24,000 nt of DNA, from assembly GCA_048938445.1 (NCBI GenBank), contig JBHLME010000003.1, positions 26,293-50,292 on the forward strand, read 5' to 3'. Below are positions 277 through 21,312 of this stretch, piece by piece. The stretch comes from Promethearchaeota archaeon. Its GTDB lineage: Archaea; Asgardarchaeota; Lokiarchaeia; Sigyniarchaeales; SOKP01. The notes under the pieces were generated by a model. It saw only the letters and a program-made list of their open reading frames with translations, did no database searches and was not told the DNA's origin. The position numbers and the translations under genes are program-made. Positions within the stretch are counted from its first letter, which is position 1; each line of letters opens with the position of its first letter.

Positions 277-1368
277 TTAAATTTGTGGTGCTATAAGTTC
301 AGGCATGTTTTTCACATCAATTTTTCCTTTATGGAAGATTCCCGCATAAGAAGGTTTAACATGCTGCCATGCGCCAACATTTATTATTTCTACTAGTCGG
401 TCATTTATAATGGCATCTCTTATATCCATGTCATGCGAATGACCATATACTATATAGTTTACCATTGAAAAATCGTGATCTTCATCCTCTAGGAAGTCTT
501 TTATACCGTCTAAATAATACTCAGGAGTTCTGGAGGATTGCCATAGATTTAAGATTCTCATTTGTAATTTCAATAATTCAAAATCAATAAATTTTAATTT
601 TGAAAATTGAGAATTAATAACATCGGTAGAAATCATTTTCCTGTTAATTAAATAATCTTTCATTATCCTTATCGTAATAGGACCAATTTCTTTTTTGCTT
701 TTAATTATCTCATTCCAAAAATAATCGTAAATTTGTTTGAGAATTATATTGTCTGAGTTGATTAATGATTTCCAATATGGACCTATAAAAAATCGGACTA
801 AATTATTCTCAAATTGATAACCATGCATCATCAGACATATATAACTACTATCTAAATCTAGACCATTGATTTTAATTTTTGAAATGGGTTCATTAAAAAT
901 CTGATCTCGGGAATCATATAACAGGAGCATATCCTTATTTTTCCACTTTTTTAAAACTATATATTGACAAAATGATGTTTCATCAAATAACTTGTTAAAT
1001 TTACCATCTTTAAACTTATTTAGAAATTTGTCTTTTCTACCTTTAAACTTCTGGTCATAGGTACCTGTTATAATATTACCGGTAATAGGAACCTCATGAT
1101 TTCCCAGTGCAATTATTACCGCTAATTTTCTTTTGATTTCAATTAACAGTCTAAAAATTCTCTGGATTGTGCCATCTTCCAGAAGAGTTTCTGGAATATC
1201 TGTAATCAAATCGAAAAAATCTCCTAAAATTAACAGAGCTTTTAATTGATTTCCAAATTCTCCATTATTGATATCTTCAAGAAAATTTACAAATGAAACT
1301 AAATCACTTTTTATAGCACCTAAATGAACATCTGAAACAACCAAGACTAAAGGATCGTTTTCGTACAA
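277..1368 (-). CDS. calcineurin-like metallophosphoesterase
   Basis: The ordered metallophosphoesterase motifs are present: SDVHLG (DxH), ILGDFFD (GDxxD), LGNHE (GNHE), MMHGY and YGHSHD (GHxH). A roughly 150 aa insert lies between GNHE and the distal His motifs. Confidence 0.8.
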   Translation of the reverse strand: MYENDPLVLVVSDVHLGAIKSDLVSFVNFLEDINNGEFGNQLKALLILGDFFDLITDIPETLLEDGTIQRIFRLLIEIKRKLAVIIALGNHEVPITGNIITGTYDQKFKGRKDKFLNKFKDGKFNKLFDETSFCQYIVLKKWKNKDMLLLYDSRDQIFNEPISKIKINGLDLDSSYICLMMHGYQFENNLVRFFIGPYWKSLINSDNIILKQIYDYFWNEIIKSKKEIGPITIRIMKDYLINRKMISTDVINSQFSKLKFIDFELLKLQMRILNLWQSSRTPEYYLDGIKDFLEDEDHDFSMVNYIVYGHSHDMDIRDAIINDRLVEIINVGAWQHVKPSYAGIFHKGKIDVKNMPELIAPQI

Positions 1369-1776
1369 TTTAATACCCTCGTTAAAGTAAATATTTTACA
1401 TGTGAATATAGTATTGTTAATATTTAAATTTTACACTTTTGTCAAAATATTGAATAAGGATTCAACAATACAATTTCAAGGATTTAATATAAACCATTTA
1501 ACACTTCAACCTATTTCATATTTATACCATGGAATTAATTTGGTGAAGCATTTGTTAAGAAATTTGCATTTTTTTAATAAAACTTTAAAAAAAATCATTT
1601 GCGTTAGTAAATTCTATTATTAAATCTTATCAATCAATTTTTTATTTATAATAACTTCTATAATCACTTAAAAATTCTAATTACACATTTCTCATTTCTT
1701 GCATAATTTTAATTAAAACATATATTATTCTAATCATTGAAAATTTTATTAACACATCAAGAAGGTAATTGACCAT

Positions 1777-2466
1777 TTGTACGACTATTTTTTATTTGAC
1801 TTAGATAATTGTTTATTACACATACCTAATCCTAGCGATTACTTTGATAATATTTTATTAAAAACTTTAAAGAAATTATCAATTAAAAGTACACTACCTA
1901 ATAGAAAGGAACGAAATTCATTTTGGCTTTCTGGAGAGAACTACTTGAATTTATTAAAGAAATGGGGAATAACTGATAGTCAATATTTTTGGAAATATTT
2001 TGATGAAATTGATTTTCAATATAGAAAGCAACTCTTTGATAATGGGGAGATATACATCTATAATGATGTTATGAAAACACTTAAAGAATTAAGAAATATG
2101 AATAAAAAAATAGGTTTAGTATCAAATACAGCAGATTATATAGTTGATTATTTCTTAGAAAAGCTAAATATCTCTCTTTTTTTTGATGAAACTTTAGGTT
2201 TAGGATTCGATAAAGACCAATCAATTGCTAAACCATCCCCAAAAGGAATTATATTTGTATTAAATAGTTTAAATTTCAATCCTAAAAATTCGAAAGCAAT
2301 CATGATAGGTGATTCACGCGTGGATATTTTCGCAGCAAAACGAGCAAATATTACTGCTTGCTTGCTTAAAAGAGATGAATATAAATACCCAAATAGAAAT
2401 GACTGGGAATCATTTCCTGATTATGAAATAGACTCCTTAAATGAGCTTTTTCGGATTCTGGATTGA
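1777..2466 (+). CDS. HAD-superfamily hydrolase (phosphatase-like)
   Basis: HAD motif I is FLFDLDNCL (DxD), motif II is LVSNT, and motif III/IV is K...MIGDSRVDIFAA. The track start is TTG, so the exact start is uncertain. Confidence 0.8.
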   Translation: MYDYFLFDLDNCLLHIPNPSDYFDNILLKTLKKLSIKSTLPNRKERNSFWLSGENYLNLLKKWGITDSQYFWKYFDEIDFQYRKQLFDNGEIYIYNDVMKTLKELRNMNKKIGLVSNTADYIVDYFLEKLNISLFFDETLGLGFDKDQSIAKPSPKGIIFVLNSLNFNPKNSKAIMIGDSRVDIFAAKRANITACLLKRDEYKYPNRNDWESFPDYEIDSLNELFRILD

Positions 2467-2585
2467 AAGGTTTTTATTTAAAGTTCTAATTTTTGTTGAT
2501 ATAACTGGTATTTGACTTTAATTAAACAAAAACTTTATTAATCTTAGACATTTTTGTAAAGAATAATGATAATAATCAACAAAAA

Positions 2586-3194
2586 ATGAAAAAACGATCT
2601 AAGATGTTAGATAAATTACATGATAAAATGGAATGCTTTTTTGGATTTTTTGGAGTCATTATCGCGGGTATATTTGTCATAACCGCTGCATTTCTCACTC
2701 CTGGGTATAATCCAATATTTAATAATGTGAGTGATTTATTAGGAGGGACTGCAAAATCATTATTCAGCATTGGATTTGTTATTGGCGGTTCTTTAGGAAT
2801 CCCTTTTTATATATATCTTGAAAGAAAATTAACTGGAATAAATGAAATTATAAGGAGAATTGCTACTGGTGTCTCAATTTTTACGTGTGTATGCATTGCT
2901 TTGGTTGCAATAGGTCCAGAGGGCGCTTATCCGGATCTTTATATGGTTTTTCATGGATTCGTAGCATTTATTTCCTTTGTAGGATCGGTTACTTATATTG
3001 GATTTTTCAGTATTTTAATGATAAGGGATGAAAATACTTATTTTCCAAAATACTATGCTTATTTTGGATTTATAATCGTTATTGTCTTAGGAATTTATTA
3101 CTTAACTTTATCATTACCCTTGATTCAATGGACATTAACCATTTTAATACTTGCATGGATTTTGTTGATAAGCACGCATTTAATTTTGCATTAA
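2586..3194 (+). CDS. integral membrane protein (about 6 TM), unknown function
   Basis: Six hydrophobic helices are spread along the 202 aa. The layout is reminiscent of small DUF998-type membrane proteins, but that assignment is from memory only. Confidence 0.55.
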   Translation: MKKRSKMLDKLHDKMECFFGFFGVIIAGIFVITAAFLTPGYNPIFNNVSDLLGGTAKSLFSIGFVIGGSLGIPFYIYLERKLTGINEIIRRIATGVSIFTCVCIALVAIGPEGAYPDLYMVFHGFVAFISFVGSVTYIGFFSILMIRDENTYFPKYYAYFGFIIVIVLGIYYLTLSLPLIQWTLTILILAWILLISTHLILH

Positions 3195-3436
3195 CATTTT
3201 AAGAAAAATAATCAAATGATCTTGAATCTAATGATATCCTGAATGTATGATATTATAATCCAGTATGTTGCCAATAAATTATGCAATAATCTAATATTAC
3301 ACGTGCCTTTTTTATAATTTTCTTTAATTTCGTCGATTATTCGCATTTTTTCATTAAATTCTTTTATTTAAATAAAATTAAATAATCTCACTGATTTTTA
3401 TCCAATACCAGATATAATAATTGAAAAAAATATATA

Positions 3437-5155
3437 ATGAAAAACGAAGAAGAGTCTTTAAGGTTAAAAGTATGGCGGATAGTGAATTTAGTCCAATCAA
3501 ATCAATTATATGTCCATTCCAAATTCTTGGAGATTAATTTTTTAAATGAAAAAGGAAAACTAACAAAAAAAATTCTCCCTGAAATATTGACTTTATGCGT
3601 TTTAAATGCAATTGTTCCAAACTCCGCAATGATTTTAATTGGAGGTCATGGCGGTGGTAAAAGCACCATTTGTAAGTTTCTAGGGCGAATGTTTACAGGG
3701 AGCTCAATGAATGAGGTTGAGCAAGCAATAATCCGGGGACATCCACAACTAACAGAAGAAAAATTAGTTGGGACTCTAAAACTCGGGAAGTTAATGAAAG
3801 AGGGAAAGGAAGAGGTTGTATGGAGAAAATTTATCACCTCTTTTTGGAAAATTATTGATGAGGTTAATAGGTTAACTCCTCATGCACAAGATATCCTTCT
3901 TTCTCTTCTTGCAGAGGGTACAGTTAAGTATTATGATGAAGTTACCGCAATTAATAAATACTGTCTATTTGCTACTATTAATCCTCAAGATGTAGGAACC
4001 TTCGAATTGAGTTTTCCTTTTTTGGATAGATTCAGTATTTCTGTCCAGATCTCAATGCCTAAAAGCCATGACCTACAATTAATACTTTCAGGTAAAGATA
4101 CCAAATATTCAGGAATCGATGAACTCATTCAAGTTCCAAAGATTCTAAGTATTGAAGAATTAATGGAAATATGGTATTATGTAAATAGAATCGATTTTGC
4201 TAATGAAGTTAATAATTATATTCATGCCATCATTAGGGAGTTCAATCTTTGTATTAGAATTGATAAGGGAAATAGTGAAAATCTTAAACCAAGCACGGGA
4301 TTATGTTCTGGATGTCATTTTAACACCGATCAGAATATTTGTAATAAAATAGACTCCATTTTAAGCGTGAGAGTCGCAAAAGATCTATTAAGATATTCCA
4401 AGGCATTAGCTTGGTTACTGGGTCTCAATCAAATAGATGTTAATATTGTGAATACGATAGCACCTTATATTTTCTCTCATAGGATTGCGTATGTTCCAAG
4501 AGAATTAGAAAAGGCTCCTTATTGGGGTAATAAATACGAATTCTCTGAAAAGATGTTAGAATTGATACAAAAAAGGTTTAAAAATAGAGAGCCTTGTTAT
4601 CAAATTGTTGAAAGGTATAGAAATGGAAGTCCAAAAGAAATAGACTTAGCAGAGTTAAAAAAGTATGAAAAAAATGATTTAATCGTCAAAAACGACCTCA
4701 TACCATTTGTAAAAAGGGTAAATAATAAAGAATATTTCGAACTTGCTCAAAAAATTAAAAATGCTGGAAAAACAGGAAAAATTGAAGAATTAGCGAAAAT
4801 GAGGAATAATTTAATGGAAGATTTTAAAATTCCTAACCGTTCAGATCTGATTAATTGGTGTAATCAAGAACTTTATAAACAAACGGTTACAGATTATGGA
4901 ATTGAATTTCAGCACTGGAAAGAATTATGGGCGGATGTAATCACGGAATTTCCAGACTTAAATGAACCTTTCAAGGAGTTATTCAGCCAAAGACAGACTA
5001 AGCAGATACGAACTGAAGATTTATTGATTGAAGTAAATGTTACTGGAACAAATGCTAATTCATTAGTTAACATCCAAATTTCAGGTGGATCTAATGCTTT
5101 AAAATTAAGGGAAATCCTTGATAGATCAGAATATATTCAAAAAGAATCAAAATGA
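3437..5155 (+). CDS. MoxR-like AAA+ ATPase with a roughly 220 aa C-terminal extension
   Basis: Walker A is GGHGGGKST (3641-3667) and Walker B is IIDEVNR (3851-3871). Sensor and lid regions are MoxR-like: ATINPQD...FPFLDRF and VAKDLLRYSKALAWLLGLNQIDVNIVNTIAPYIFSHRI. The adjacent VWA partner gene is typical of MoxR loci. Confidence 0.85.
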   Translation: MKNEEESLRLKVWRIVNLVQSNQLYVHSKFLEINFLNEKGKLTKKILPEILTLCVLNAIVPNSAMILIGGHGGGKSTICKFLGRMFTGSSMNEVEQAIIRGHPQLTEEKLVGTLKLGKLMKEGKEEVVWRKFITSFWKIIDEVNRLTPHAQDILLSLLAEGTVKYYDEVTAINKYCLFATINPQDVGTFELSFPFLDRFSISVQISMPKSHDLQLILSGKDTKYSGIDELIQVPKILSIEELMEIWYYVNRIDFANEVNNYIHAIIREFNLCIRIDKGNSENLKPSTGLCSGCHFNTDQNICNKIDSILSVRVAKDLLRYSKALAWLLGLNQIDVNIVNTIAPYIFSHRIAYVPRELEKAPYWGNKYEFSEKMLELIQKRFKNREPCYQIVERYRNGSPKEIDLAELKKYEKNDLIVKNDLIPFVKRVNNKEYFELAQKIKNAGKTGKIEELAKMRNNLMEDFKIPNRSDLINWCNQELYKQTVTDYGIEFQHWKELWADVITEFPDLNEPFKELFSQRQTKQIRTEDLLIEVNVTGTNANSLVNIQISGGSNALKLREILDRSEYIQKESK

Positions 5156-5703
5156 GCTTCATTTAATTTATCAATTATCATATCAAGTGCTTTATTAACA
5201 TTCAATCCTGTTTTACTCGAAATTAAAAGATAACCAAAAACTTCTTCATAAGTATCTACGATTGTTCCAAGAATTTCCGTAAATAAAGCCTTTGTTTCAT
5301 CATCAACCTCATCTTCCTTGGTCCCTAGAATTAGAAGGGGGATGTCTCCACTTTCAGATAAAATATCCATCCATTCTTCTACTTTATCCAAAGTATTAAA
5401 ACGTGTCATGTCAAATAAGAAAACGGCAACGCTGGAACCATCTACAAAATCTAGTAATAATTTTCTGAACCGATCTTGTCCTCCAAAATCCCAAAATATG
5501 AGCTCATAATCCTTACCGTGATGACTCATTGTTATTTTCTTGTTAAAAAATTCTACACCCCTGGTTAATTGAGATTCATCATCAAAAGTATTATTTATTA
5601 CCTTGTTTAGAAAAGAGGTTTTACCGACTCCTCCCTCTCCACAGATTACTATCTTGATATACGAACCATTGATATTGTTCATTTTCAGATCTATATGTGT
5701 CAT
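5137..5703 (-). CDS. Ras-superfamily small GTPase (Rab/Ras-like)
   Basis: G1 is GEGGVGKT (5617-5640), the switch I Thr lies in QLTRGVEF, G3 is WDFGGQDRF, G4 is the variant GTKED (NKxD with Asn replaced by Thr) and G5 is SSKTG. It is 188 aa with no C-terminal Cys lipidation motif. Confidence 0.85.
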   Translation of the reverse strand: MTHIDLKMNNINGSYIKIVICGEGGVGKTSFLNKVINNTFDDESQLTRGVEFFNKKITMSHHGKDYELIFWDFGGQDRFRKLLLDFVDGSSVAVFLFDMTRFNTLDKVEEWMDILSESGDIPLLILGTKEDEVDDETKALFTEILGTIVDTYEEVFGYLLISSKTGLNVNKALDMIIDKLNEAHFDSF

Positions 5704-5878: not shown

Positions 5879-7582
5879 ATGATTGAAATCGACAAAAAAA
5901 GTGAGGATAAGGTTCAAAAAAGGATAAAGGAACTTGCTAAGCGTGCTTGGGCTAAAACTTGTAAAAATTTTTACTATCCTCCTTTAAATGAGCCTCTTTA
6001 TATTTTTGATTATACTCGAAAGGAAGGTTTCTATATTGATCCTAAACATTGGCAGATAACCATGAATCTAGCCAATACGCCCCCATTTACAGAAAATAAA
6101 GAATATTTCAATTATTTTCATGCAATTACATTACACGAGGTTTCTCATTATCAAATAATCCCCTATGATGGATTATTGAACGCTAAACTATTACGAATGG
6201 CCATAAAACATGTAAACCAAATATTTGCTCCCATAGTCGTTAATATTTTTTCAGATTTAATAATAGATACGAAATTATTTCAAGATTACCCCGATCTCAT
6301 GAAATGGGAAATTGAAACCACCTATAATTATGTTATTCAAGGAAATAAAAATCAATTGAGTAAATTTAGCATGTTCTTGTTTAAAGCTTATGAAAAAATA
6401 TTTAATATTAATTTCATTGGGAGCGAACTTTATCCCGAATTAGATCTTCTAGTCGATAAAATTATTAAAATTATTTCTAAAGATTTTGAGGATGAGACAA
6501 AATGGGAGCAAAAAGTCTCAAAAGTAGCCTATCATTTAAGAGGATTAATTAATGAGACTTTTACTTTAATCAGTCCAGGAGTTTCGACTAGTAAGGGGAA
6601 AAGAAGAAAAAAAACTGATGAAAGTATTATTATCGAACTTCCAGAAGACATTTTAGAATTAATGGATAATCCTTTTGAAAATAAGAATTCAGATAAATTA
6701 AACCGTGATAATATAGATGGATTAAACGTTAAAGCAGAAGAATTTGCAAAAAATGTTCCTTATTCAGAATTTGGAGCTCCTGCAAGTCAAGCAGGTATTT
6801 TAATAGATGGAAATTCTCTTGCTACTTGGTATAGAGGTATAGCAAAAGACTTGATAAATATAAAGATATTTGAAAAAAGACCAAGTGGAAAGGTTCCAAT
6901 TTATCCCGAAACATGGAGAATTGGAGATCCAATGGAACAATTAGATGTACCCCTTTCTTTAAGTAATTATCCTGTAATGATACCAAATATTACCACTAAA
7001 AAATGGGTACTAGAAGAGGGTTCTGGGATGATGGTTGAAAAGCAACTTCCTGACATTTTAATCGTTCTAGACTCTTCGGGCTCAATGAGATGGAATATTA
7101 AAGGAAAGACGGATAATGCCCGAGGACAATATCACACGGCAATAATAGCTTCATTTGCTGCCTTACATCAAGCAGCAAGTAAAGGTGTAAAGTTTAGCAT
7201 TATTAATTTCTCTAATCATCCTGATATTTGTCAGTGGACTAGGAATATCTATGAAGCAGAAAATACAATTTTAAGATACCAGGGAGGTGGAACTGTCCTA
7301 CCAATTAAAGGAATGGTGGATCAATGCAATAAAGCTGAGAAGAAAGTTCTTGTATTATTAATTACAGATTTTGGATTATATAACTGGGAAAAATCTAAGA
7401 AGAAATTTTTAGAACTAGCCAATAAAGGCCATTTTATCATAGGGTTTTTTATTGGCGCTCAAAAAATTCCTAAAAGTAAGTTTAAAACCTTGCTTGATAA
7501 AGTAAAATTCTATCCAATAAAAAATATTAAAAAATTAATCGATCTCGTTATAGAAAACGTTAATGAGCATTTTTCCATTTGA
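5879..7582 (+). CDS. VWA-domain protein with an N-terminal HExxH putative metallopeptidase-like domain (MoxR partner)
   Basis: HEVSH sits at 6134-6148 within FHAITLHEVSHYQIIPYDG. The MIDAS motif is LIVLDSSGSM (DxSxS at 7069-7083), followed by VLVLLITDFG, which is typical of a VWA Rossmann fold. A basic patch KGKRRKK separates the two halves. Confidence 0.8.
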   Translation: MIEIDKKSEDKVQKRIKELAKRAWAKTCKNFYYPPLNEPLYIFDYTRKEGFYIDPKHWQITMNLANTPPFTENKEYFNYFHAITLHEVSHYQIIPYDGLLNAKLLRMAIKHVNQIFAPIVVNIFSDLIIDTKLFQDYPDLMKWEIETTYNYVIQGNKNQLSKFSMFLFKAYEKIFNINFIGSELYPELDLLVDKIIKIISKDFEDETKWEQKVSKVAYHLRGLINETFTLISPGVSTSKGKRRKKTDESIIIELPEDILELMDNPFENKNSDKLNRDNIDGLNVKAEEFAKNVPYSEFGAPASQAGILIDGNSLATWYRGIAKDLINIKIFEKRPSGKVPIYPETWRIGDPMEQLDVPLSLSNYPVMIPNITTKKWVLEEGSGMMVEKQLPDILIVLDSSGSMRWNIKGKTDNARGQYHTAIIASFAALHQAASKGVKFSIINFSNHPDICQWTRNIYEAENTILRYQGGGTVLPIKGMVDQCNKAEKKVLVLLITDFGLYNWEKSKKKFLELANKGHFIIGFFIGAQKIPKSKFKTLLDKVKFYPIKNIKKLIDLVIENVNEHFSI

Positions 7583-12513: not shown

Positions 12514-13689
12514 ATGATCATTGAAGTCTTAATCTGTGCTGATATGGCATACAAAAGAAAAGCGTTGAGCACGTTCATTTCCTCAAATCCATACATGGTT
12601 ATCGTGAATATTGCACGAAATGGGATTGATGCCATGAAGATGGTAGAAAAATACTCACCAGACATCATGGTGCTTGATATTAAAAGTGATAACCTAAAAT
12701 TCTTATATGGATTTAAAGAATTAAATAAAAATCATATCCTTCCAACGATCTTTATCTTAGAGTATGATGATGATATCAATTCAATTGGAAATATTTTATT
12801 AAATTTAGATTTTAAAGAATTCTATTATGTAAGAAAACCTGAAGGAACTTACCAAGAGCAATACAAAGGGATAATCGATCCTTTGACCAATAAAATTCTT
12901 AAGATCACGAGAACGAAGTATAAAAAAATAGAAGAAAAAAAAAAGTATTTAAGAGAAACATTAAATCAACGAGATGACTTCTATTATAACAAATTCCAGA
13001 AAAAAGATACAGTAATAGATACAAGTCCCACGAAGATTGAAAAAGATGAGTCTAATGAGCTAGATCTCACTGATGTGTCTTTAACTCCTGATCTAGATAT
13101 CCATTTAGAAACAAATATAATTGTAATGGGTGCAAGTGTTGGTGGTCCAAAAACGTTTAGAAAAATTCTGAAAGAAATACCTCCTTCATTTCCTAGTCCT
13201 ATTTTATTAGTTCAGCATTTAGATCATTTTTTCATGCGTCAATTTGCCGTAAACCTTAAACGTGATTGTAATCTATCCGTTAAAATACCTCGAAATGGTG
13301 AACAAATAGAACCACAGACAATTTATGTTTCTCCAGGGGGATATCACATGGAGATAATAGTTCTAAGTAATAAACCATGTATAAGAATATTTGAAGGAGA
13401 ACCAGTGAATTTTTGTAGACCTTCCGTGGATGTACTTTTCAATTCAGCAGCTCGAGTATATAGAAATCACACATTAGGTATCCTTTTAACTGGTATGGGT
13501 AAAGATGGTGTTAATGGGCTCTTAGCAATAAAAAAAATGGGTGGAAAAACCATAGCAGAATCAGAGGAAACTAGTATTTTATATGGAATGCCTAAAATGG
13601 CAAAAGAAAGCAAAGCTGCAGATAACATTCTTCCCAATTACAAGATTAAAAATTATATGATTAATTTTGCTAAGAGATTACATGAATAA
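12514..13689 (+). CDS. cheB: CheB-like protein-glutamate methylesterase/deamidase with atypical receiver domain
   Basis: The C-terminal domain carries the CheB catalytic triad context: GASVGG (Ser208, 13135-13137), VQHLD (His235) and GMGKDG (Asp331, 13504-13506). The Ser-His-Asp spacing is 27/96 residues. The N-terminal CheY-like receiver retains VLDIKSD (Asp55) and RKP (Lys108), but has CAD in place of the DD acidic pair. Confidence 0.8.
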   Translation: MIIEVLICADMAYKRKALSTFISSNPYMVIVNIARNGIDAMKMVEKYSPDIMVLDIKSDNLKFLYGFKELNKNHILPTIFILEYDDDINSIGNILLNLDFKEFYYVRKPEGTYQEQYKGIIDPLTNKILKITRTKYKKIEEKKKYLRETLNQRDDFYYNKFQKKDTVIDTSPTKIEKDESNELDLTDVSLTPDLDIHLETNIIVMGASVGGPKTFRKILKEIPPSFPSPILLVQHLDHFFMRQFAVNLKRDCNLSVKIPRNGEQIEPQTIYVSPGGYHMEIIVLSNKPCIRIFEGEPVNFCRPSVDVLFNSAARVYRNHTLGILLTGMGKDGVNGLLAIKKMGGKTIAESEETSILYGMPKMAKESKAADNILPNYKIKNYMINFAKRLHE

Positions 13690-13718
13690 ACAGATTTAAA
13701 AATAATAAATAGCTTAGT

Positions 13719-14423
13719 ATGTATATGAAGTTGTATAAGATTAGTGAAGAGGGAACTCTAAACGAGGTTAATAAATTAGACTTCATAGAAGATGATGTTT
13801 ACATCGTAGATGATGATAAAACTATTTATATTTGGGTTGGGCTTAAGGTCCCTCAATCATTAAAAGATACAACAGCAAGCACTGCGCGTCAACTTGATAA
13901 AGAAAGGGGCGGAGCATCAAAAATATTAATCATGAAACAAAACCGGGAATATGGATCATTTTTAGCTATTATGTCTCAATTAAAAAAAGGCTTGAAAGCA
14001 GGGATTGACGTTGAACGGCGACCAGAATTAGAATTAGAACCTCCAGATGTAATTAAATGGTTAAATCAACTTAAAAAATATCGTAAAATTGCACCAGAAC
14101 TTAAATATGCTGTCTTTAGGGAAGGATACCCGGTAATTGAAGAGGAAGAAGTTCAAGAAGAACTTAATTTTGAAGAGCAAGTGAGAGTTGCCGCATATTA
14201 TCTATCTAAAGAGGATTATACTTATGATGAGTTATGCTGGATGCTTGCAGAACGAATTATGAAACAAATGACTCGATTAGCCTCAATTGAGGATATAAGA
14301 CTCAAAGCAGAAGAAGTCTTTAGATCTTCCAGTACATATGATGAACTATGTTGGTTAATTGGAGAACTTGATATTCTAAATAAATTCAATTTTTTTGAAG
14401 ATGAAATTACTCCTACCCTTTAA
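13719..14423 (+). CDS. gelsolin-domain protein with a roughly 140 aa C-terminal helical extension
   Basis: The N-terminal roughly 90 aa match the gelsolin/villin repeat pattern: KLYKISEEGTLNEVNKLDFIEDDVYIVDDDKTIYIWVGLKVPQSLKDTTASTARQLDKERGGASKILIMKQNREYGSFLAIM. The extension carries two QLKK motifs and two TYDELCW repeats. The gene starts 29 nt after the cheB-like stop. Confidence 0.75.
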   Translation: MYMKLYKISEEGTLNEVNKLDFIEDDVYIVDDDKTIYIWVGLKVPQSLKDTTASTARQLDKERGGASKILIMKQNREYGSFLAIMSQLKKGLKAGIDVERRPELELEPPDVIKWLNQLKKYRKIAPELKYAVFREGYPVIEEEEVQEELNFEEQVRVAAYYLSKEDYTYDELCWMLAERIMKQMTRLASIEDIRLKAEEVFRSSSTYDELCWLIGELDILNKFNFFEDEITPTL

Positions 14424-14855
14424 CGTTTTTAATATTCAAATGTTATACCAATTTATTTTTTCTATTTTCATTAAAAATTTTTAAAATTTCATCATATTCG
14501 AGATTTAATATAACTTTCAAAAAGATTATTTCTAAATAATTTGGTAGTATTAAAAGAATAAAAAAAAATGATTACAATTACTTTACAATTTTGTATATAG
14601 AAATTCAAGATAATTCATTACTTACTGTTTTTTTAAAAATGCTTCTTCCTAAATGTTTGAGATAAATAGTCTTCCTAAAGAAAATTATTAAAAAATGGTA
14701 CTGAGAGAACTAATCAAACAAAAGATGAATCCAACTCCCATTATTTGCTCTATACTTCATTTAGTCATTTTTCTTTTTTTTCAAGAAAAATTTGCGAAAA
14801 ACTTTTAATGACATTTAAATAGGAACTAGTGATAATTATATAATTGAGAGAAAAA

Positions 14856-17138
14856 ATGCCATGTTCAAGGAAAAATAAAAGTATTGCAATATTTATCTTT
14901 TTTTTATTGATTCTATGCTTAATTTTGTTTAGTAATGTCAGAATTTCATATGCGTTAGATAGTAGCGATTCTTTAATAGTCGATTTAAATTTCCTAACTC
15001 ATGAATTCTCTGATAAAAAAGAAACAATGAATAATGTAAGCGCGATTAATATTGAATTGCCCTCATCAACTTGGAATATTACCCAATTAGAAATTAATTT
15101 TACAAATATTGAATATTATAGCCGAGAGCTGAAAACTATTGAAGATTATCCAAATAGTGATGAATTTTTTGTAGACAAGCAAAACACAGAAGGAATTGGA
15201 GTTCAAATTAGTATAAATGAGATTACAACGATTTATGGTGCTTATCTTAATTTAAAGATATTAGATATCCATATGCATGATGAGCTATATGTTCGAATAA
15301 GAGGTTATGATTCATCAATCAATGCACCAAATAATACAATCTATGGAGAAGTAACTTTAAATAATACCATAATTGATGGTTGGAATTATCAGAACTTTTC
15401 ATCATCCATAAGACTCCCTAAAGGTAATTATTTTTTAGTACTGGAAGGATTTATTCAGGCGGAAGGTAAATATCATTGGTATTGTAATGATTTAAATCCT
15501 AATAATCCCAATTTATATATATCAAAAAAAAGCGGATCTGGTTGGAGCAATGGAATTCAAAATTCACCATTTTTATATAAATTAGATCAAGAGATAAAGA
15601 AGAATAATGCTACCCCAGAAGAATTCAATATGACTGCTGAAATAAATGAAGCATCTTATAATATCCTCAATGGTCCATATAATGGTTCTGGAACACTTAA
15701 TTTAAAAGCTATCAATTTTTCTCCTCAGGAGGAAATTTTTCATATTAATGTGAAACCAAACAAATTCTTCTTTAATTTGAGTTATTATATTAAATTGAAA
15801 AATCAATTCTATTCTAATGGTTTCGTTAATATAACGGAAAATCAAGATAATTTATGGAAAATTATTCCTGATATTAATAGGTGTAATTATAATTATAGCG
15901 TCAAGATTAAATTACCAAATAATTATTATGATTTAATGGTATTGAAAGACAGTGTAGATATTACTCTATCTGAGAGTATTTTGAATGATGGATATTTTTT
16001 ATATATATTGAATGATACCATTGATAATGATGTTAACTGGGAAATCATGGTAAAATCACCACAAATCGATTTAACTTTAGATCTCAGTAGAGGTACTGAA
16101 TTTGAATTAGGTAAAGAATTAATTTTTTCTGCCATAGCTCCAATTAGAGAAGGAAATTTTACCTTTATTGTTTATAATGAACTTGGAGCGGAATTGGAAC
16201 GAACTATAATACCTGTAGTTTTAGATGAAACTATTTATTCTTTCAATATAGAACCAACCGCTTCTCTTGGAGTTTGGTCCGTCTATATATATTGGAACAA
16301 TTATTATGAGGCTAGCGTTAAATCTCAAGAATTCACTATTATTCCCCCTTCCTCTGGCAGTTCCTCTCCGCTTGATCTAAATCCTATTCTAATAATTATA
16401 ATAGCTTTAATTTTAATTAGTGGTACAATAAGTGTTACTGGTTACCAAACTATAAAAAGAAAAAAGAGAGGAAGAGACTTAAAAATTAAGAAAATTTCAA
16501 ATAAATTTAAGGATATACTCAGTCTAAATTATTTAATGATTTCTGATATTAGATCTGGAGTAAATTTATTCGAACAATTCTATATGGGAAAATCAATGGA
16601 ACCAAGTCTAATTTCAGGATTTTTAGATGCTATAAAAAATTTTGGGATTGAATTAACCGGTTCTTATAGAAAAACTGAAACATTAACTCTGGATTATGAA
16701 GATTCAATAATTTTAATGAATGAATGTTCAAATTTCAGGTTAATTATAATAACTTCAGATAAACCTTCAGAGGAATTGACAAATTCAATCACTAATTTAG
16801 CAAATGAAATTGAAGAAAAATATGGGGATCAGATTCAAAAATTCAGTGGAGGACTAATAACTCAATTTAGAGGTATAAAAGAGTTAATAGAAAAGCATCT
16901 GAACGTTTCGTTTGCCTCTCCATTAAAAATAATTCAATCTACGAAAATAAAACTTGATGCTAGGGAAAAAGTAATCATAGAAAGAGCTAAAGAAATTATG
17001 AAACAAACTAATTTAAATTATTTTTATACAACATTTCTGATGCCTGATCAACAATTCGATCTTGGAACTACTAAAACCATATTTAATTTGATTGAAAAAA
17101 ATATATTTAAACCAATTAATTTAAATTTTAAAGAATGA
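14856..17138 (+). CDS. type-I single-pass membrane protein: large sequon-rich ectodomain, TM, cytoplasmic longin/roadblock-like domain
   Basis: The track start is TTG at 14844, but ATG 14856 (MPCSRKNKS...) is more plausible. A signal/anchor (IAIFIFFLLILCLILFSNVRISYA) is followed by a roughly 480 aa ectodomain with 15 N-x-S/T sequons. The TM segment is ILIIIIALILISGTISVTGY (about 16381-16443), followed by KRKKRGR. The cytoplasmic module (LNYLMISDIRSGVNLFEQFY...LISGFLDAIKNFGIEL...TLTLDYEDSIILMNECSNFRLIIITS...) has longin/roadblock-like beta-beta-alpha-beta-beta-beta-alpha order (about 16524-16850). Confidence 0.75.
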   Translation: MPCSRKNKSIAIFIFFLLILCLILFSNVRISYALDSSDSLIVDLNFLTHEFSDKKETMNNVSAINIELPSSTWNITQLEINFTNIEYYSRELKTIEDYPNSDEFFVDKQNTEGIGVQISINEITTIYGAYLNLKILDIHMHDELYVRIRGYDSSINAPNNTIYGEVTLNNTIIDGWNYQNFSSSIRLPKGNYFLVLEGFIQAEGKYHWYCNDLNPNNPNLYISKKSGSGWSNGIQNSPFLYKLDQEIKKNNATPEEFNMTAEINEASYNILNGPYNGSGTLNLKAINFSPQEEIFHINVKPNKFFFNLSYYIKLKNQFYSNGFVNITENQDNLWKIIPDINRCNYNYSVKIKLPNNYYDLMVLKDSVDITLSESILNDGYFLYILNDTIDNDVNWEIMVKSPQIDLTLDLSRGTEFELGKELIFSAIAPIREGNFTFIVYNELGAELERTIIPVVLDETIYSFNIEPTASLGVWSVYIYWNNYYEASVKSQEFTIIPPSSGSSSPLDLNPILIIIIALILISGTISVTGYQTIKRKKRGRDLKIKKISNKFKDILSLNYLMISDIRSGVNLFEQFYMGKSMEPSLISGFLDAIKNFGIELTGSYRKTETLTLDYEDSIILMNECSNFRLIIITSDKPSEELTNSITNLANEIEEKYGDQIQKFSGGLITQFRGIKELIEKHLNVSFASPLKIIQSTKIKLDAREKVIIERAKEIMKQTNLNYFYTTFLMPDQQFDLGTTKTIFNLIEKNIFKPINLNFKE

Positions 17139-17238
17139 ATATTAGAATTAGAGTAAATGTAATCAACAAATATTTTAATTGAAAAATCCTAGAATAATTA
17201 ATTTTACATCAAAAAATAATATAAAATAGTATTATATA

Positions 17239-17682
17239 ATGGACGAAATAATTTGGATTTATATCATTGATAAATCTGGAGCAACAATTTTTAGTTATGA
17301 AAATTATATCAAGGGAACTTCTCAAGTTAACCATGCTTTGTTATCTCATTTTATTCATGCGTTACAATCAGTTGCAAATAATATTAAAGAGGATGAAATT
17401 AAAGAAGTTCTTATAGATAAAAATAAATTCTTCCTAATTAAAGAAAAATTAACAAATTTTCTCTTTATTTTAAAAACTAAACTAAATACTGAATCTGAAA
17501 TTATTAATCCAATATTGAAAAAAATTAAAGATATGTTTATTGAAAGATTTGCAGGACATTTCACTTTGCCTATTCAAGAAAAGGTAAAGATTTTAAAATC
17601 TTTCAAGGAAGATGTTAAAAGAATAATTGAGGGTAAAAACAACGTGTCATCCTTGATTGATTCACTCTCAAGAATGAATTGA
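17239..17682 (+). CDS. small longin/roadblock-like domain protein
   Basis: In this 147 aa protein, IIWIYIIDKSGATIFSYEN (beta hairpin) is followed by the helix ALLSHFIHALQSVANNI, three strands (EVLIDKNKFFLIKEKLTNFLFILKT) and C-terminal helices. This is the secondary-structure order of longin/SNARE-like domains. Confidence 0.6.
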   Translation: MDEIIWIYIIDKSGATIFSYENYIKGTSQVNHALLSHFIHALQSVANNIKEDEIKEVLIDKNKFFLIKEKLTNFLFILKTKLNTESEIINPILKKIKDMFIERFAGHFTLPIQEKVKILKSFKEDVKRIIEGKNNVSSLIDSLSRMN

Positions 17683-17870
17683 GACCCTTAAACTGAATCA
17701 CGTTAATTCATTTTATATTTACATTCAGTTGTTTTAAATTCTTAGAAGAATTCGTCGAAGATGAGTTGTTGATCATCCAAATAATGATCATTTGTTAAAT
17801 GAATCACATTCAAGGATTAGAAATAATATTTAGATCACCTAGAAGAAGGAATAACTCCTACAGATTAATA

Positions 17871-18800
17871 TTATATTTGTTTGAATGCTTTCTCTAATAC
17901 CTCTTGAAATTTCTCAAATTCTTTCTTTATTTGAAAATGTTCAGCTTTATTTGTCGTGAGACCTAAATAAAAAACATTATCACCGTTTTCAGATTTGACT
18001 TCAAATTTTTTGACATATTCCTTTTGATCATTAAAAAATGAGGTTCTTTCAGAAAAGTGAACTTTTTCATTCACGAGACTCTGAAAAAACTCTAAATCTT
18101 CACTAATTTTCGTACTTATTTTTTGTTCAAAATCCCTAGTGTCAGTTATCTCAGAATAATAGTCTGCTATGATTAATCCTGATTCATCATATAAGATAAT
18201 ATAGTTTGATTCTAAGCTTTTTCCAAGGTCTTCAATATATGAATTGACACCATTCAAGTTTATTAATTGACTCAATGAGTATGATACTGCTTTTGATAAG
18301 GAGGAGATATCATAATAGGTGGTATCAAAAAACTTGAATCTCATGTGACTATTTTGTTCTAATATTAATTTTTTTAATCTATCCCGACGAGTTATTATTT
18401 CTACATCTTGCTTTAAATTTGGATCAAATTTGCTAAAACACACCATTACTTCATGGGAGTATTCCATATCATTATAAATAATTAAAAGTTTCTTCAAATA
18501 AGCAAGTGAATCTTCAAACTTACTTTCATCTTGAATGTCAATGATATAGTATAGAAAATCCGTTTCTTCAAAATAAACAAGGTTTTTTACGTATAATTGC
18601 CTGTATTTAACTTGCCCTCCCATATCCCATATATTTATTGCGAAAAGATTCAAAAAATTAAATGAATTAAATTCTATTAATTTCGTGGGTAATAATTCCT
18701 TCACTAATTCATAAAAATTATATTTCCTTCTCAGGGCAATTAAAAAACTGGTTTTTCCAGCATTGTCCAAACCCGTAAAAGCAATTTTTATCTCTTTCAA
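17871..18800 (-). CDS. Rag/Gtr-like (Arf-type P-loop) GTPase with C-terminal roadblock domain
   Basis: G1 is GLDNAGKT, switch I is PTKLIEF, G3 is WDMGGQ and G4 is the variant FSKFD. It continues with TTYYDISSLSKAVSYSLSQLIN and a C-terminal roughly 125 aa alpha/beta module (NYIILYDESGLIIADYY...), collinear with eukaryotic RagA/Gtr1 as I recall them. At 309 aa it is similar in length to Rag GTPases. Confidence 0.8.
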   Translation of the reverse strand: MKEIKIAFTGLDNAGKTSFLIALRRKYNFYELVKELLPTKLIEFNSFNFLNLFAINIWDMGGQVKYRQLYVKNLVYFEETDFLYYIIDIQDESKFEDSLAYLKKLLIIYNDMEYSHEVMVCFSKFDPNLKQDVEIITRRDRLKKLILEQNSHMRFKFFDTTYYDISSLSKAVSYSLSQLINLNGVNSYIEDLGKSLESNYIILYDESGLIIADYYSEITDTRDFEQKISTKISEDLEFFQSLVNEKVHFSERTSFFNDQKEYVKKFEVKSENGDNVFYLGLTTNKAEHFQIKKEFEKFQEVLEKAFKQI

Positions 18801-18887
18801 GATATGCGAATTCCAACTTAATAAATAATATTAAAAATATTATGAAAAAAGAAGTATTTATGTTTTTTGTAATCGTAAATGAATAAT

Positions 18888-19532
18888 TTAAAAAATTCTA
18901 CTTACAAATTCTTCAAATTTCATGCTTCTCAATTGTTCTGCCCAAAGTGTCTTTAAATTTGGTTTATCTGGCAGAATATTTTCAGTTTTTAAAAGTTCAT
19001 AAAGTTTTTCAACGGTTCTTTCAATTAACAATGCTTGAAAAGTAATTTTATCTTTCACATCCTTAGTGCTTTCATCTATTTCATTTTTCATTTCTTTAAT
19101 TATCCTCATCCAGTTCTCTGCAAACTTCATGATCAATTGATCAGTTTTCATTAATTCTTCCATTTTATAAATGGGAAAAGTAATTTCATATTTTTCTCCA
19201 TCAAATTTTATCAAATCATTCCATTCAAGGATTAATAAGTGATTTTCGAGGGTTTTGTTTTTCCACTGGTAATTAACATTACATTTATATTCATCGTTTT
19301 GAATTAAAAGAGGTCTTGGTGAAAAATTAATAGTATCATGAAGTTGTTGAAAGGTTTTTGGGCCATCAGCAAGTTTAATGAGTATCTCTCTTCGAACCTT
19401 ACTTTCGACTACCCAAGGTATTTCAGAATCATCCCAGGGTTTATTCGATGCAAAATCGAACCATGGTTGTATTTCATCTACATTTATTTTTCCTACAAAT
19501 CGATAATCATTATATTTTGTATTTTCTTTCAT
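18888..19532 (-). CDS. hypothetical protein with ArsR-like winged-helix segment
   Basis: VRREILIKLADGPKTFQQLHDTINFSPRPL resembles the wHTH of ArsR/PadR-type regulators. A strong GGGAGG lies 6-11 nt upstream of the ATG (19539-19544 on the + strand). The start is 23 nt downstream of the SufB-like stop on the same strand. Confidence 0.5.
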   Translation of the reverse strand: MKENTKYNDYRFVGKINVDEIQPWFDFASNKPWDDSEIPWVVESKVRREILIKLADGPKTFQQLHDTINFSPRPLLIQNDEYKCNVNYQWKNKTLENHLLILEWNDLIKFDGEKYEITFPIYKMEELMKTDQLIMKFAENWMRIIKEMKNEIDESTKDVKDKITFQALLIERTVEKLYELLKTENILPDKPNLKTLWAEQLRSMKFEEFVSRIF

Positions 19533-19555
19533 GTTTATCCTCCCTTAACAAGAAT

Positions 19556-20518
19556 TCATTCCTCTCCCAACATTGCCTCAATTAATACTTCCGTGGCTTC
19601 TTCTTCAGTCAAACCTTTGGCCATTATTTCATCTAACCACTTTTGTGGAAAGCGACCTAAAGAAGCCTCATGAGAAACGCTAGAAGTTGGATCAGTAGCC
19701 CGGATAAATGGTCTTGCCCTGCAAATAGATCCTTTTCCAAGAACAATTTCACTACACTCAACATGACCATTACAATGTGGAGCATTACCTTCCGTTATGC
19801 CATACATCAACACTTCTCCCCCATCACGTGCGGCAGCTTTCATTTTCAGAATACTTCTTGCGTTTTCTCCTTCTAAGTAGATTGCATCTCGAATTCTCAC
19901 GGAATCATTTTTATTCTTGCCAAATGCTTTTATATTAGATCTGATGACACTATTTTCCATAGCATAAATATCTAGCATAATTTTTACCTTACCTGGAGTT
20001 CCTTTAGTTAAATTAAAATTATTTTCAAACACGCTATTTTCTCCAATATACATATACCCAACTGGTGCAACTAACGCTCCACTATTCTCTCCATGATAAT
20101 GAGTTTCACTGTAAGTAAAATTACAATTTTTTCCTATATAGAAATGTCCAAACATTTTATGAATCAGTCCATTTGCATTAGGAAAACTACAATGTGCTTG
20201 AACAATTACATCAGTATTGTCCTCCGCAATTATTCGCGGAAAAATCTCTTGAATTCCCGTTTGCTTGTTAACACCAAAGCATAAATGAACGGGTTCTTCA
20301 ATTTTAGTTCCTTCCTTGATGACTATATCTGCTACAATTCCATTAGGAATTTCTCTTCCCTTGAGGATTATTCCCTCATATTGCTCGACACCCTTAATTT
20401 TGTTAAAATCTAAAAGTAATTTGGCACCTTTTCCATGACCTGGTATGAAATCATTAATATCAATATTATAATCTTCTAAACTTTCCAATATTTCTTCGGG
20501 ATAATCACTATTGGTCAT
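19556..20518 (-). CDS. sufB: short SufB/SufD-family Fe-S cluster assembly scaffold (minimal archaeal SufB/SmsB type)
   Basis: A beta-helix-like repeat region is followed by the conserved C-terminal block ARPFIRATDPTSSVSHEASLGRFPQKWLDEIMAKGLTEEEATEVLIEAML, matching the SufBD pattern P.l.i....v..sHea..G.........L..rGl.eeeA. There is a 4-nt ATGA overlap with sufC. Confidence 0.75.
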   Translation of the reverse strand: MTNSDYPEEILESLEDYNIDINDFIPGHGKGAKLLLDFNKIKGVEQYEGIILKGREIPNGIVADIVIKEGTKIEEPVHLCFGVNKQTGIQEIFPRIIAEDNTDVIVQAHCSFPNANGLIHKMFGHFYIGKNCNFTYSETHYHGENSGALVAPVGYMYIGENSVFENNFNLTKGTPGKVKIMLDIYAMENSVIRSNIKAFGKNKNDSVRIRDAIYLEGENARSILKMKAAARDGGEVLMYGITEGNAPHCNGHVECSEIVLGKGSICRARPFIRATDPTSSVSHEASLGRFPQKWLDEIMAKGLTEEEATEVLIEAMLGEE

Positions 20519-21312
20519 ATATTCTCCTCTCCTGCAAAAATTCGATCAATATAATCTTCTGGAAAGCATGCTTTTCCATTTCTATAAAGGGTTCTCTTAC
20601 AAAATTCCTTCAAACCCGCTTTTTTACAATATCTTAACATTACCCGAGGAAACTCATCCGTGATTAGTGTATCACCATGCCATATGAGTGTACCATAATC
20701 CGCAACCATTCCAATTTCTTCTCTATGGGTTATAAGCAAGATTGTCATGTTTAAGGTTTTAATTTTATTAAAAATGTTGAAGAAATCTTCGGTAATAATC
20801 ACATCTAATCCACTATCGGGTTCATCTAAAATTATTAATCGGGGTCTCATGGCAACAACAGCTGCCAGTTCAATCCTCTTCCTTTCTCCTCCACTGAGAG
20901 TTTCATCAACATATCTATTAATATACTTATCTGGAGGTAAATTGACAATATCTAAAGCTTCACGAACCTTTTCTCTTAAATTTATTTTATCTTTAATACC
21001 TAGTGAAATGTATTTTTTTACGGATAAACCATCAATTCGTGCTGGTTCCTGCCAAGCTAATGTAATACCTAATTTAGCTCGTTCAGTTATACTCATTTCG
21101 CTAATATCTATACTATCAAAAAATATTTTTCCATCGGATGGTTTATAATTTTGAAGGCCCATAATTGTATAGGCTAATGTGGATTTACCTGAACCATTTG
21201 GCCCTATGATTGCGTGGATGGATCCTTCTTTTACTCCAAATGAGGTTTTATTTATAATGATTTGTTTATTATCTAGCGTTGGAATTGTTAATTCTTGTAA
21301 TTCTAAAAGCAT
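20515..21312 (-). CDS. sufC: SufC-like ABC ATPase of the Fe-S cluster assembly system
   Basis: Walker A is GPNGSGKST, the Q-loop is AWQEP, the signature is LSGGERKR, Walker B is LIILDEPDSGLD and the H-loop is ITHRE. It is coupled to the SufB-like gene and has a 3-Cys C-terminal tail. Confidence 0.85.
   Translation of the reverse strand: MLLELQELTIPTLDNKQIIINKTSFGVKEGSIHAIIGPNGSGKSTLAYTIMGLQNYKPSDGKIFFDSIDISEMSITERAKLGITLAWQEPARIDGLSVKKYISLGIKDKINLREKVREALDIVNLPPDKYINRYVDETLSGGERKRIELAAVVAMRPRLIILDEPDSGLDVIITEDFFNIFNKIKTLNMTILLITHREEIGMVADYGTLIWHGDTLITDEFPRVMLRYCKKAGLKEFCKRTLYRNGKACFPEDYIDRIFAGEENI

Follow-up and report, generated by a model that had tools for sequence, protein, structure and literature searches.

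A conserved Asgard two-gene cassette of a longin-tailed transmembrane protein and a free longin protein, with an embedded Arf/Rag-like GTPase in a divergent branch

The window analysed here is a stretch of 24,000 nucleotides (nt) from contig JBHLME010000003.1 of a Promethearchaeota archaeon, AT-rich throughout (GC content 24-34%), in which the gene of a membrane protein of 760 amino acids (aa) is followed by that of a free 147-aa longin protein and, on the opposite strand, by that of a 309-aa Rag/Arf-like GTPase. It was found that the membrane protein and the 147-aa protein constitute a tightly conserved two-gene cassette of Promethearchaeota-type Asgard archaea, and that the 309-aa GTPase is a chance neighbour of this cassette, its adjacency not being conserved. 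In a divergent branch of the cassette, another small GTPase, Arf/Rag-like and of ~185 aa, is encoded between the two genes. By a modest preference over the alternatives taken together, we favour the explanation that the longin domain in the tail of the membrane protein and the free longin form a membrane-anchored heterodimer serving as a platform for a small GTPase, and that the window holds two independent units.

The membrane protein and its longin tail

The three open reading frames (ORFs) proposed in a first-pass annotation of this DNA were all recovered, with the convergent orientation of the GTPase gene and the gap of exactly 100 nt between the membrane-protein gene and the 147-aa gene. 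The first ORF (14844-17138, plus strand) would encode 764 aa from a TTG start at 14844 and 760 aa from the ATG at 14856, the latter length being in line with those of the orthologues. Full-length orthologues occur in more than 25 loci and, in tblastn and phmmer searches, were mostly of ~757-764 aa, several of them of exactly 760. Hydropathy analysis identified two hydrophobic segments, namely an N-terminal one, which follows basic residues, ends in 'SYA' and may be read as a signal peptide, and a transmembrane one at about residues 512-537. The ~475 residues between the two hold 15 of the 17 NxS/T sequons of the protein, and the transmembrane segment is directly followed by KRKKRGR and then the tail, 227 aa in all. 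According to the positive-inside rule, such a basic stretch lies on the inner face of the membrane; therefore, the 227-aa tail was assigned to the cytoplasm. The membrane protein gave no Pfam match at E<1 and belongs to no NCBIfam family.

An AlphaFold 2 (AF2) model of the tail (m346b60a42913), built from a 20-sequence alignment, reached a predicted local distance difference test score (pLDDT) of 79 and a predicted TM-score (pTM) of 0.74. It consists of a juxtamembrane helix, a beta-beta-alpha-beta-beta-beta-alpha core, in which family alignments revealed a conserved helix of the pattern 'SLISGFLxAIxNFG', and a helical C-terminal sub-domain. When the model was compared with the PDB by Foldseek, 46 matches at E<=0.001 were obtained, all of them longin/roadblock proteins at probability 1.0, including zeta-COP, Sec22b, AP sigma, VAMP7, Fuzzy, LAMTOR, MglB and the C-terminal domains of Rag proteins; the best were GATOR1 chains, aligned over 250-291 columns with low TM-scores of 0.31-0.35. 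As modelled, the tail is a longin domain, which begins with two beta-strands and no preceding helix, and does not have the roadblock topology.

The longin core and the helical sub-domain are conserved together as a single juxtamembrane C-terminal module of 227 aa. A profile of the tail was searched against 1.84 billion cluster representatives (clusters at 50% identity), which retrieved 1431 clusters at E<=0.001, 615 at E<=1e-10 and 130 at E<=1e-30. Among the best 150 of the 1431 clusters, 136 have no more than 25 residues between the end of the domain and the C-terminus, and a transmembrane-like segment lies no more than 70 residues upstream of it in 114 of the 116 members that have more than 60 residues upstream. 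The median length of these 150 members is 752 aa, some reaching 1100-1470 aa. When eight longer members (928-1468 aa) were scanned, four had no Pfam match at E<=0.001, three gave weak, sub-threshold matches to immunoglobulin-like (Ig-like; Big) domains and two gave above-threshold FG-GAP matches, one of the latter, P0352, being anchored by a transmembrane segment. Thus, the tail is a modular juxtamembrane cytoplasmic module carried on varied ectodomains, as expected of the output domain of a receptor or adhesin.

The tail domain of P0352 and P0367 is combined with FG-GAP/beta-propeller and Ig-like regions, and P0367 additionally matches Itfg2, DDRGK and PCI models; both architectures are integrin-like or KICSTOR-like. 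The Pfam family PF18422, which was hit by some tail homologues, is a model of the TNFR16 transmembrane helix that matches the transmembrane segment, and was set aside as uninformative.

The free longin protein

The AF2 model of the 147-aa protein (pLDDT 82, pTM 0.77) has the same core as the tail, extended by three helices. Its best Foldseek matches were the longin domains of VAMP7, Ykt6 and Sec22b, sedlin (TM-score TMq up to 0.66), AP sigma and zeta-COP, with LAMTOR and MglC placed below the longin proteins. For both cassette domains, the matches to LAMTOR and MP1/p14 ranked under those to longin proteins (TMq 0.33-0.47), both models open with two strands and no helix ahead of them, and both show the beta-beta-alpha-beta-beta-beta-alpha(-alpha) order of the longin fold at a Foldseek probability of 1.0. 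At the level of primary structure, the 147-aa protein stays below the Pfam gathering thresholds of Sybindin (16.7 bits against a cut-off of 25, E 0.0077) and Robl_LC7 (13.8 bits against 23, E 0.048), and nothing was found for it in NCBIfam. A search with it retrieved 82 homologues.

The three longin-type modules of the window, that is, the tail, the free protein and the C-terminal domain of the GTPase, were compared with one another by BLASTP without significant similarity (E=0.048 and 5.4). An hhalign comparison placed tail and free longin in register, at a non-significant P=0.024. A common origin of the three modules could not be demonstrated by BLASTP or hhalign.

A conserved cassette and its GTPase-bearing branch

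Cassette loci were collected from contigs carrying tail homologues and from a genome scan and a metagenome scan with the 147-aa family, yielding, after removal of duplicates, 47 copies of the 147-aa gene, 43 of which have readable upstream sequence. The gene directly upstream encodes the membrane protein in 32 of these 43 copies (gap 7-162 nt), an Arf/Rag-like GTPase of ~185 aa in eight (gap 12-32 nt) and another 147-aa protein in one, and could not be assigned in the remaining two. A single 147-aa gene often adjoins duplicate receptor genes, arranged in tandem or divergently (L007, L010, L024, L047, L050 and L054; the copies in L007 lie at 52-2334 on the minus strand and at 2584-4541), and in L001, L004 and L007 the receptor gene is split into two ORFs by frameshifts or assembly errors.

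The GTPase-bearing cassettes (L021, L023, L024, L025, L048, L052 and L053) form a divergent branch, whose free longins are 38-54% identical to the 147-aa protein of the window. Wherever the upstream sequence extends far enough, the GTPase gene is found between the receptor and longin genes: in L025 the receptor occupies 914-3226, the GTPase 3230-3772 and the longin 3794-4216, the order receptor-GTPase-longin recurs in L024 and L052, and L021 reads receptor-GTPase-longin-GTPase-longin. The GTPase-longin unit is duplicated in L021, L023 and L052. One metagenome-assembled genome (MAG), DZ2S.378, carries both cassette types (L019 and L021), which are therefore paralogous forms. All the GTPase-bearing loci display the same-strand adjacency of a small GTPase and a ~140-aa longin that is characteristic of MglA/MglB; the window does not, its GTPase being convergent and not conserved in this position.

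Additionally, a free homologue of the tail domain that has no transmembrane segment (P0015, 208 aa, 42% identical) is encoded 13 nt 3' of a Ras-like GTPase in L002 (2-1690) and L003 (602-2191). The GTPase upstream of this gene has a C-terminal extension of ~190 aa, and a radical-SAM/SPASM gene follows the free tail-domain gene in both loci. After the GTPase-bearing cassettes there are one or two same-strand ORFs of ~203 aa (L021 10554-11914; L023 1892-2503), the products of which are possible effectors. Those at L021 11300-11914 and L023 1892-2503 gave many weak coiled-coil Pfam matches, the L023 protein also a weak zinc-ribbon match, and the ORF at L021 10554-11165 had no Pfam match.

The embedded GTPases are devoid of a C-terminal domain, match both Gtr1_RagA and Arf with E-values of 1e-18 to 1e-28, and find their best solved relatives in 8yl2 and 8zla, as does the GTPase of the window. 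They also exceed the Pfam cut-off of SRPRB (38-53 bits against 25), which brings to mind the receptor of the signal recognition particle (SRP): eukaryotic SR-alpha binds SR-beta through its SRX longin domain, and a membrane-held SRX-like longin with an SR-beta-like, that is Arf-like, GTPase might here serve to dock cytosolic machinery, for example the ribosome or translocon, and not to signal. This explanation was judged highly improbable. The SRPRB scores are well below those of Arf and Gtr1_RagA for the same proteins, the anchor sits on the longin protein and not on the GTPase, such a receptor would have no use for a large and variable glycosylated ectodomain, and Pfam and NCBIfam scans found no NG domain of the SRP54/FtsY type.

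GTPases beside the cassette were detected by phmmer with four GTPase queries. In the branch to which the window belongs, the cassette of L013 is followed after 248 nt by the gene of a Ras-like multi-domain GTPase of 518 aa; the orthologous gene is found 2.8 kb downstream of the cassette in L012 and, on the other strand, ~1.5 kb upstream of it in L032. This protein of ~515 aa, found within 3 kb of the cassette in all three loci (L013 10692-12248, L012 13203-14750, L032 1544-3091), is composed of an N-terminal region that was read as roadblock-like (with no Pfam Robl_LC7 match), a Ras-family G domain and an extension at the C-terminus. At L015, the gene 41 nt downstream of the cassette is convergent and encodes a Ras-like GTPase of 184 aa, with an orthologue 1.4 kb away in L020.

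The 309-aa GTPase and its own neighbourhood

The Rag/Gtr-like character proposed in the first-pass annotation for the 309-aa GTPase was supported in the form of a Rag/Arf-like G domain. In Pfam, Gtr1_RagA (2.3e-18; 66.9 bits, cut-off 22) and Arf (2.8e-17; 63.2 bits) are nearly tied, both above their cut-offs, and the SKFD and TTYYD motifs are similar to the HKxD and TSIWD motifs of Rag proteins. A family profile built from 39 members matched in the PDB, over the full length, two solved chains named 'GTP-binding protein', 8yl2 at 5.9e-36 (8-310 against 40-339) and 8zla at 1.3e-27; a literature search found no paper describing either. RagA came next (2.2e-16; 9-240 against 6-236), above every Arf and Arl chain, and its alignment reaches ~55 residues into the C-terminal roadblock domain, covering helix 1, two strands and the beginning of helix 2. 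Used by itself, the C-terminal domain gave a profile with no significant match in the PDB or Pfam. A roadblock fold of this domain is probable, as judged from the RagA alignment. The claim of a longin/roadblock module in each of the three genes was thus borne out by the predicted longin folds of the tail and the 147-aa protein, and for the GTPase it stands as a probability. The family is large, with at least 321 homologues of ~314 aa. Such GTPase-roadblock architectures rank second in size among the GTPase classes of the cultured Lokiarchaeon MK-D1 (Tran et al., PMC10933270), and Asgard GTPases have been divided into the classes RasL, RagGtr, ArfL, ArfR and MglA (Vargova et al., 10.1101/2024.02.28.582541).

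The gene neighbourhood was also followed from the side of the GTPase. The window reads CheB-gelsolin-[receptor-147aa]-GTPase-214aa-SufD-SufC. In L028 and L029, whose GTPases are 65-66% identical to that of the window, the series SufC-SufD-214aa-GTPase is directly convergent with gelsolin-CheB and the cassette is missing. This is the gene order of the window with the cassette taken out, which makes the adjacency seen in the window lineage-specific. The GTPase of L030 (80% identical) is the nearest to that of the window among those with flanking sequence, and this locus has a Ras-like GTPase and a 124-aa protein at the gelsolin/GTPase junction. L026 (79%) has the Suf/214aa-GTPase block with a SIR2-TPR gene after the GTPase, and L027, of the same sequence as L026, comprises the GTPase and its SIR2-TPR neighbour only; in L056-L059 (54-56%) the context is a different, non-Suf one. 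The cassette is absent from all nine GTPase-centred loci (L026-L030 and L056-L059).

From these comparisons, the conserved companion of the 309-aa GTPase is the 214-aa protein and not the cassette. The 214-aa gene lies between SufD and the GTPase in L026, L028, L029 and L030, with an intervening gene in L030, and is directly upstream of and co-directional with the GTPase gene in L026, L028 and L029, so that its product may be the real operon partner of the GTPase. The insert at the L030 junction (3052-3988), in which the 124-aa protein has a weak, sub-threshold zinc-ribbon match, suggests that the gelsolin/GTPase junction is a variable spot gathering GTPase-related genes. The pairing of CheB, an enzyme of chemotaxis type, with the actin-regulator-like gelsolin protein appears conserved, the two genes being adjacent and co-directional in the window (12514-14423), L028 (6929-8998) and L029 (2995-5036). 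Gelsolin and CheB were considered as partners of the cassette and rejected, as they are syntenic with the GTPase block and not with the cassette in other loci.

These data bear on the first-pass proposal that the three adjacent genes form one Ragulator-Rag-like module, in which the tail and the free longin would dock the 309-aa GTPase through its roadblock domain. All three proteins carry, or probably carry, longin/roadblock-type domains, and the embedded GTPases of the divergent branch share their closest solved relatives with the GTPase of the window. Moreover, a small GTPase is the immediate downstream neighbour at 3 of 18 cassettes, which has P about 0.005 at a genome-wide GTPase density of ~2%, a background derived from the 74 GTPases of MK-D1 (PMC10933270) and an assumed gene count. 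However, at the local density of ~8% of genes the same 3/18 is not unusual (P=0.17), and the other neighbouring GTPases come from different families. The adjacency is conserved from neither side: L028 and L029 keep the synteny of the window without the cassette, no other cassette locus has an orthologue of the 309-aa GTPase, and in the closest relative of the cassette, L008, whose free longin is 81% identical, the 4.3 kb of downstream sequence encode no GTPase. Because the genes are convergent, GTPase and cassette are not co-transcribed. A single three-gene module was therefore considered distinctly unlikely, and the expected conservation of the neighbourhood across genomes was confirmed for the pair of membrane protein and 147-aa protein but not for the GTPase next to it. 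Likewise, the anticipated genomic link between receptor, longin and GTPase exists in the divergent cassettes, with their ~185-aa GTPase, and not with the 309-aa protein of the window.

A membrane-anchored longin platform

Under the favoured explanation, unit 1 (14856-17682) is the two-gene cassette, encoding a glycosylated single-pass surface protein and a free longin, and unit 2 (17871-21312) is the separate conserved block SufC-SufD-214aa-Rag-like GTPase. It is typical of longin and roadblock domains to associate laterally in pairs and to offer small GTPases a platform, examples being LAMTOR2/3, NPRL2/3, Mon1-Ccz1, MglB2-MglA and SRX-SR-beta (PMC3747258). By analogy, the tail longin would pair side by side with the free longin at the inner face of the membrane, and the heterodimer would bind, recruit or regulate an Arf/Rag-like G domain, acting as an anchor, a GTPase-activating protein (GAP) or a guanine nucleotide exchange factor (GEF). 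The variable ectodomain would modulate the platform, with a ligand or surface contact as input. The client GTPase would be encoded inside the cassette in the divergent branch and elsewhere in the branch of the window, where the neighbouring 309-aa GTPase is an unlikely candidate for this part. For the embedded GTPases, the protein anchor would also supply membrane localisation, because they lack a C-terminal domain and their short N-termini, as read by eye, show nothing that obviously resembles an anchoring motif.

Several observations weigh against this explanation. The pairing is argued from fold analogy and co-encoding, because the similarity between tail and free longin is not significant. 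Family alignments revealed no invariant arginine in the tail longin or the free longin, and a GAP with an arginine finger of the NPRL2 type is thus not indicated. Most cassettes, including that of the window, carry no GTPase, and a role of the cassette independent of GTPases is possible. Ras-like GTPases adjoin several cassettes of the window's branch (L013, L015, L012, L020 and L032), so that a general, loose tendency of the cassette to lie near GTPases, the neighbour in the window among them, is possible as well.

An alternative explanation is that, in the window's branch, the cassette is unrelated to GTPases and encodes an adhesin or envelope glycoprotein whose longins serve sorting, trafficking or cytoskeletal anchoring. 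The models for such a role would be the longin domains of SNAREs, or AP sigma and zeta-COP, whose binding partners are cargo and coat components, and it is SNARE longins, AP sigma, zeta-COP and sedlin, not GTPase-bound roadblocks, that give the best structural matches. The 32 of 43 cassettes without a GTPase are consistent with this role, the glycosylated ectodomains and the Ig-like and FG-GAP Pfam matches of related proteins suit adhesion, and in the window a gelsolin gene lies immediately upstream. However, the gelsolin adjacency is not kept in other cassette loci, a small GTPase is the only recurrent extra gene inside cassettes, and the free tail-domain protein is also co-encoded with a GTPase. 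Furthermore, eukaryotic longin proteins of these kinds mostly work with GTPases of the Arf, Rab or Sar families. This role was accordingly rated unlikely, and the membrane-anchored longin platform retained as the preferred explanation.

A broader proposition, which is tentative and on present evidence doubtful, is that Asgard single-pass receptors with varied ectodomains signal to an Arf/Rag-like GTPase through a membrane-tethered longin heterodimer. If true, it would represent prokaryotic receptor-to-small-GTPase signalling that predates lipid-anchored platforms such as Ragulator, longin GEFs of the TRAPP/Mon1-Ccz1 type and SR-alpha/SR-beta.

Other features of the window

The coordinates of the cassette and its surroundings are collected in Table 1. 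The window holds two small GTPases, the second, besides the 309-aa protein, being a Ras/Roc-type protein of 188 aa (5137-5703, minus strand). It is flanked by a MoxR-like AAA_5 ATPase (3437-5155) and by a 567-aa protein (5879-7582) that has a sub-threshold VWA_2 match only. A search of 14350-17950 for signatures of a mobile element gave only short AT-rich chance repeats, with no terminal repeats or target duplications.

Table 1. Positions of the cassette, of its domains and of the adjoining genes in the window
Feature	Position	Strand	Basis or remark
CheB-type methylesterase/response regulator	12514-13689	+	Pfam; synteny anchor together with the gelsolin gene
Gelsolin-domain protein	13719-14423	+	Pfam; anchor that places the cassette between the gelsolin gene and the GTPase
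Single-pass type-I-like surface glycoprotein, 760 aa	14856-17138	+	ORF, hydropathy, sequons
Signal-peptide-like segment of the membrane protein	14856-14954	+	Hydropathy
Ectodomain of the membrane protein, 15/17 NxS/T sequons	14955-16376	+	
Transmembrane segment of the membrane protein	16377-16454	+	
Cytoplasmic tail of the membrane protein	16455-17135	+	
Longin-fold core of the tail	16524-16841	+	AF2, Foldseek, alignment conservation
Helical C-terminal sub-domain of the tail, possibly winged-helix-like	16857-17114	+	AF2 secondary structure
Free longin protein, 147 aa, sedlin/SNARE-longin-like	17239-17682	+	AF2, Foldseek
Rag/Arf-like GTPase, 309 aa	17871-18800	-	Pfam, profile search, synteny
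G domain of the 309-aa GTPase	18255-18800	-	Motifs GLDNAGKT, WDMGGQ, SKFD, TTYYD
Probable roadblock-type C-terminal domain of the 309-aa GTPase	17874-18254	-	
214-aa protein, no family assignment, weak match to an ArsR-type helix-turn-helix (E=0.09)	18888-19532	-	Co-directional upstream neighbour of the GTPase
SufD/SufC genes	19556-21312		Beyond the 214-aa gene

Significance

Among the eukaryote-like gene families of Asgard archaea, those of small GTPases and of longin/roadblock proteins have undergone some of the largest expansions. Which of these proteins regulates which has been established in hardly any case, because the genes are rarely co-encoded (PMC10933270). The cassettes described here offer a concrete trio, consisting of a longin-tailed transmembrane protein, a free longin and, in one branch, an Arf/Rag-like G domain in the same operon, and they suggest how a GTPase could be held at the membrane by a protein anchor instead of a lipid modification or an amphipathic helix. 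If the interaction is real, it would provide a candidate ancestor-like state for membrane-platform GTPase signalling and an entry point to the partners of dozens of orphan Asgard GTPases. Neither Pfam nor NCBIfam at present has a model for the 227-aa tail module or the 147-aa protein; the cassette proteins may already be catalogued among the Asgard clusters of orthologous genes (asCOGs). In a literature that is incompletely searchable, no report was found of a free longin and a GTPase being encoded together with a longin-tailed transmembrane protein, and the available part of Vargova et al. (10.1101/2024.02.28.582541) contains nothing on gene neighbourhoods.

Comparison with known systems

With the Ragulator-Rag system (LAMTOR1-5 with RagA/B-RagC/D; EGO-Gtr1/Gtr2 in yeast), the cassette would share membrane-anchored small longin/roadblock domains that serve a Rag-type GTPase, and both the embedded GTPases and the window's neighbouring GTPase score on Gtr1_RagA. 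However, the anchor is a transmembrane glycoprotein, whereas LAMTOR1 is a lipidated wrap, and the embedded GTPases have no roadblock C-terminal domain, by which Rag proteins dimerise and dock. Both cassette domains are of longin and not roadblock topology, with no N-terminal helix, no homology of the cassette proteins to LAMTORs was detectable with Pfam, and no ORF for a lipid-anchored, wrapping LAMTOR1-like subunit is present in 13000-21000. The cassette is therefore not a member of the Ragulator-Rag system, since topology, type of anchor and conserved association all differ, and the detailed likeness to Ragulator drawn in the first-pass annotation did not survive. That earlier interpretation is partly supported: the kind of system was recognised correctly, but neither the GTPase nor, in detail, the eukaryotic analogue was the right one.

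The TRAPP longin subunits (sedlin/TRAPPC2, Bet5 and synbindin) resemble the 147-aa protein, for which they gave the best TM-scores (0.66, 2j3w/1h3q) and a weak Sybindin match in Pfam (0.0077, below the cut-off), but no Bet3/TRAPPC3 partner is encoded nearby. GATOR1 NPRL2/NPRL3 and the Asgard NPRL2-like proteins likewise have a longin domain followed by a small C-terminal domain, as in the tail. The TM-scores to GATOR1 are, however, low (0.31-0.35), and the cassette longins have no conserved arginine finger. Asgard NPRL2-like longin domains have been reported in fusion with two-component signalling modules (Liu et al., 10.1101/2020.10.19.343400), whereas the tail domain is fused to a transmembrane segment and an ectodomain.

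Among prokaryotic systems, an Asgard operon has been described that encodes a LAMTOR1-like roadblock protein, a Rab-like GTPase and a DENN protein (Liu et al., 10.1101/2020.10.19.343400). Like the GTPase-bearing cassettes, it is a conserved Asgard neighbourhood of a roadblock/longin-superfamily protein with a small GTPase; it includes no membrane receptor, and the cassette includes neither DENN nor a Rab-like GTPase. As a rule, the GTPase genes of MK-D1 do not share operons with genes of roadblock or longin proteins (Tran et al., PMC10933270). MglA-MglB (MglC) of Myxococcus and Thermus is similar in that a small Ras-superfamily GTPase shares an operon with a longin/roadblock-superfamily protein of ~140 aa, and MglB and MglC are among the fold matches of the cassette domains. 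The differences are that the GTPase of the cassette is Arf/Rag-like and its regulator of longin type, and that, wherever upstream sequence is available, the cassettes add a third component, the transmembrane longin-tailed protein. The cassettes are thus a variant of the known longin/roadblock-GTPase modules.

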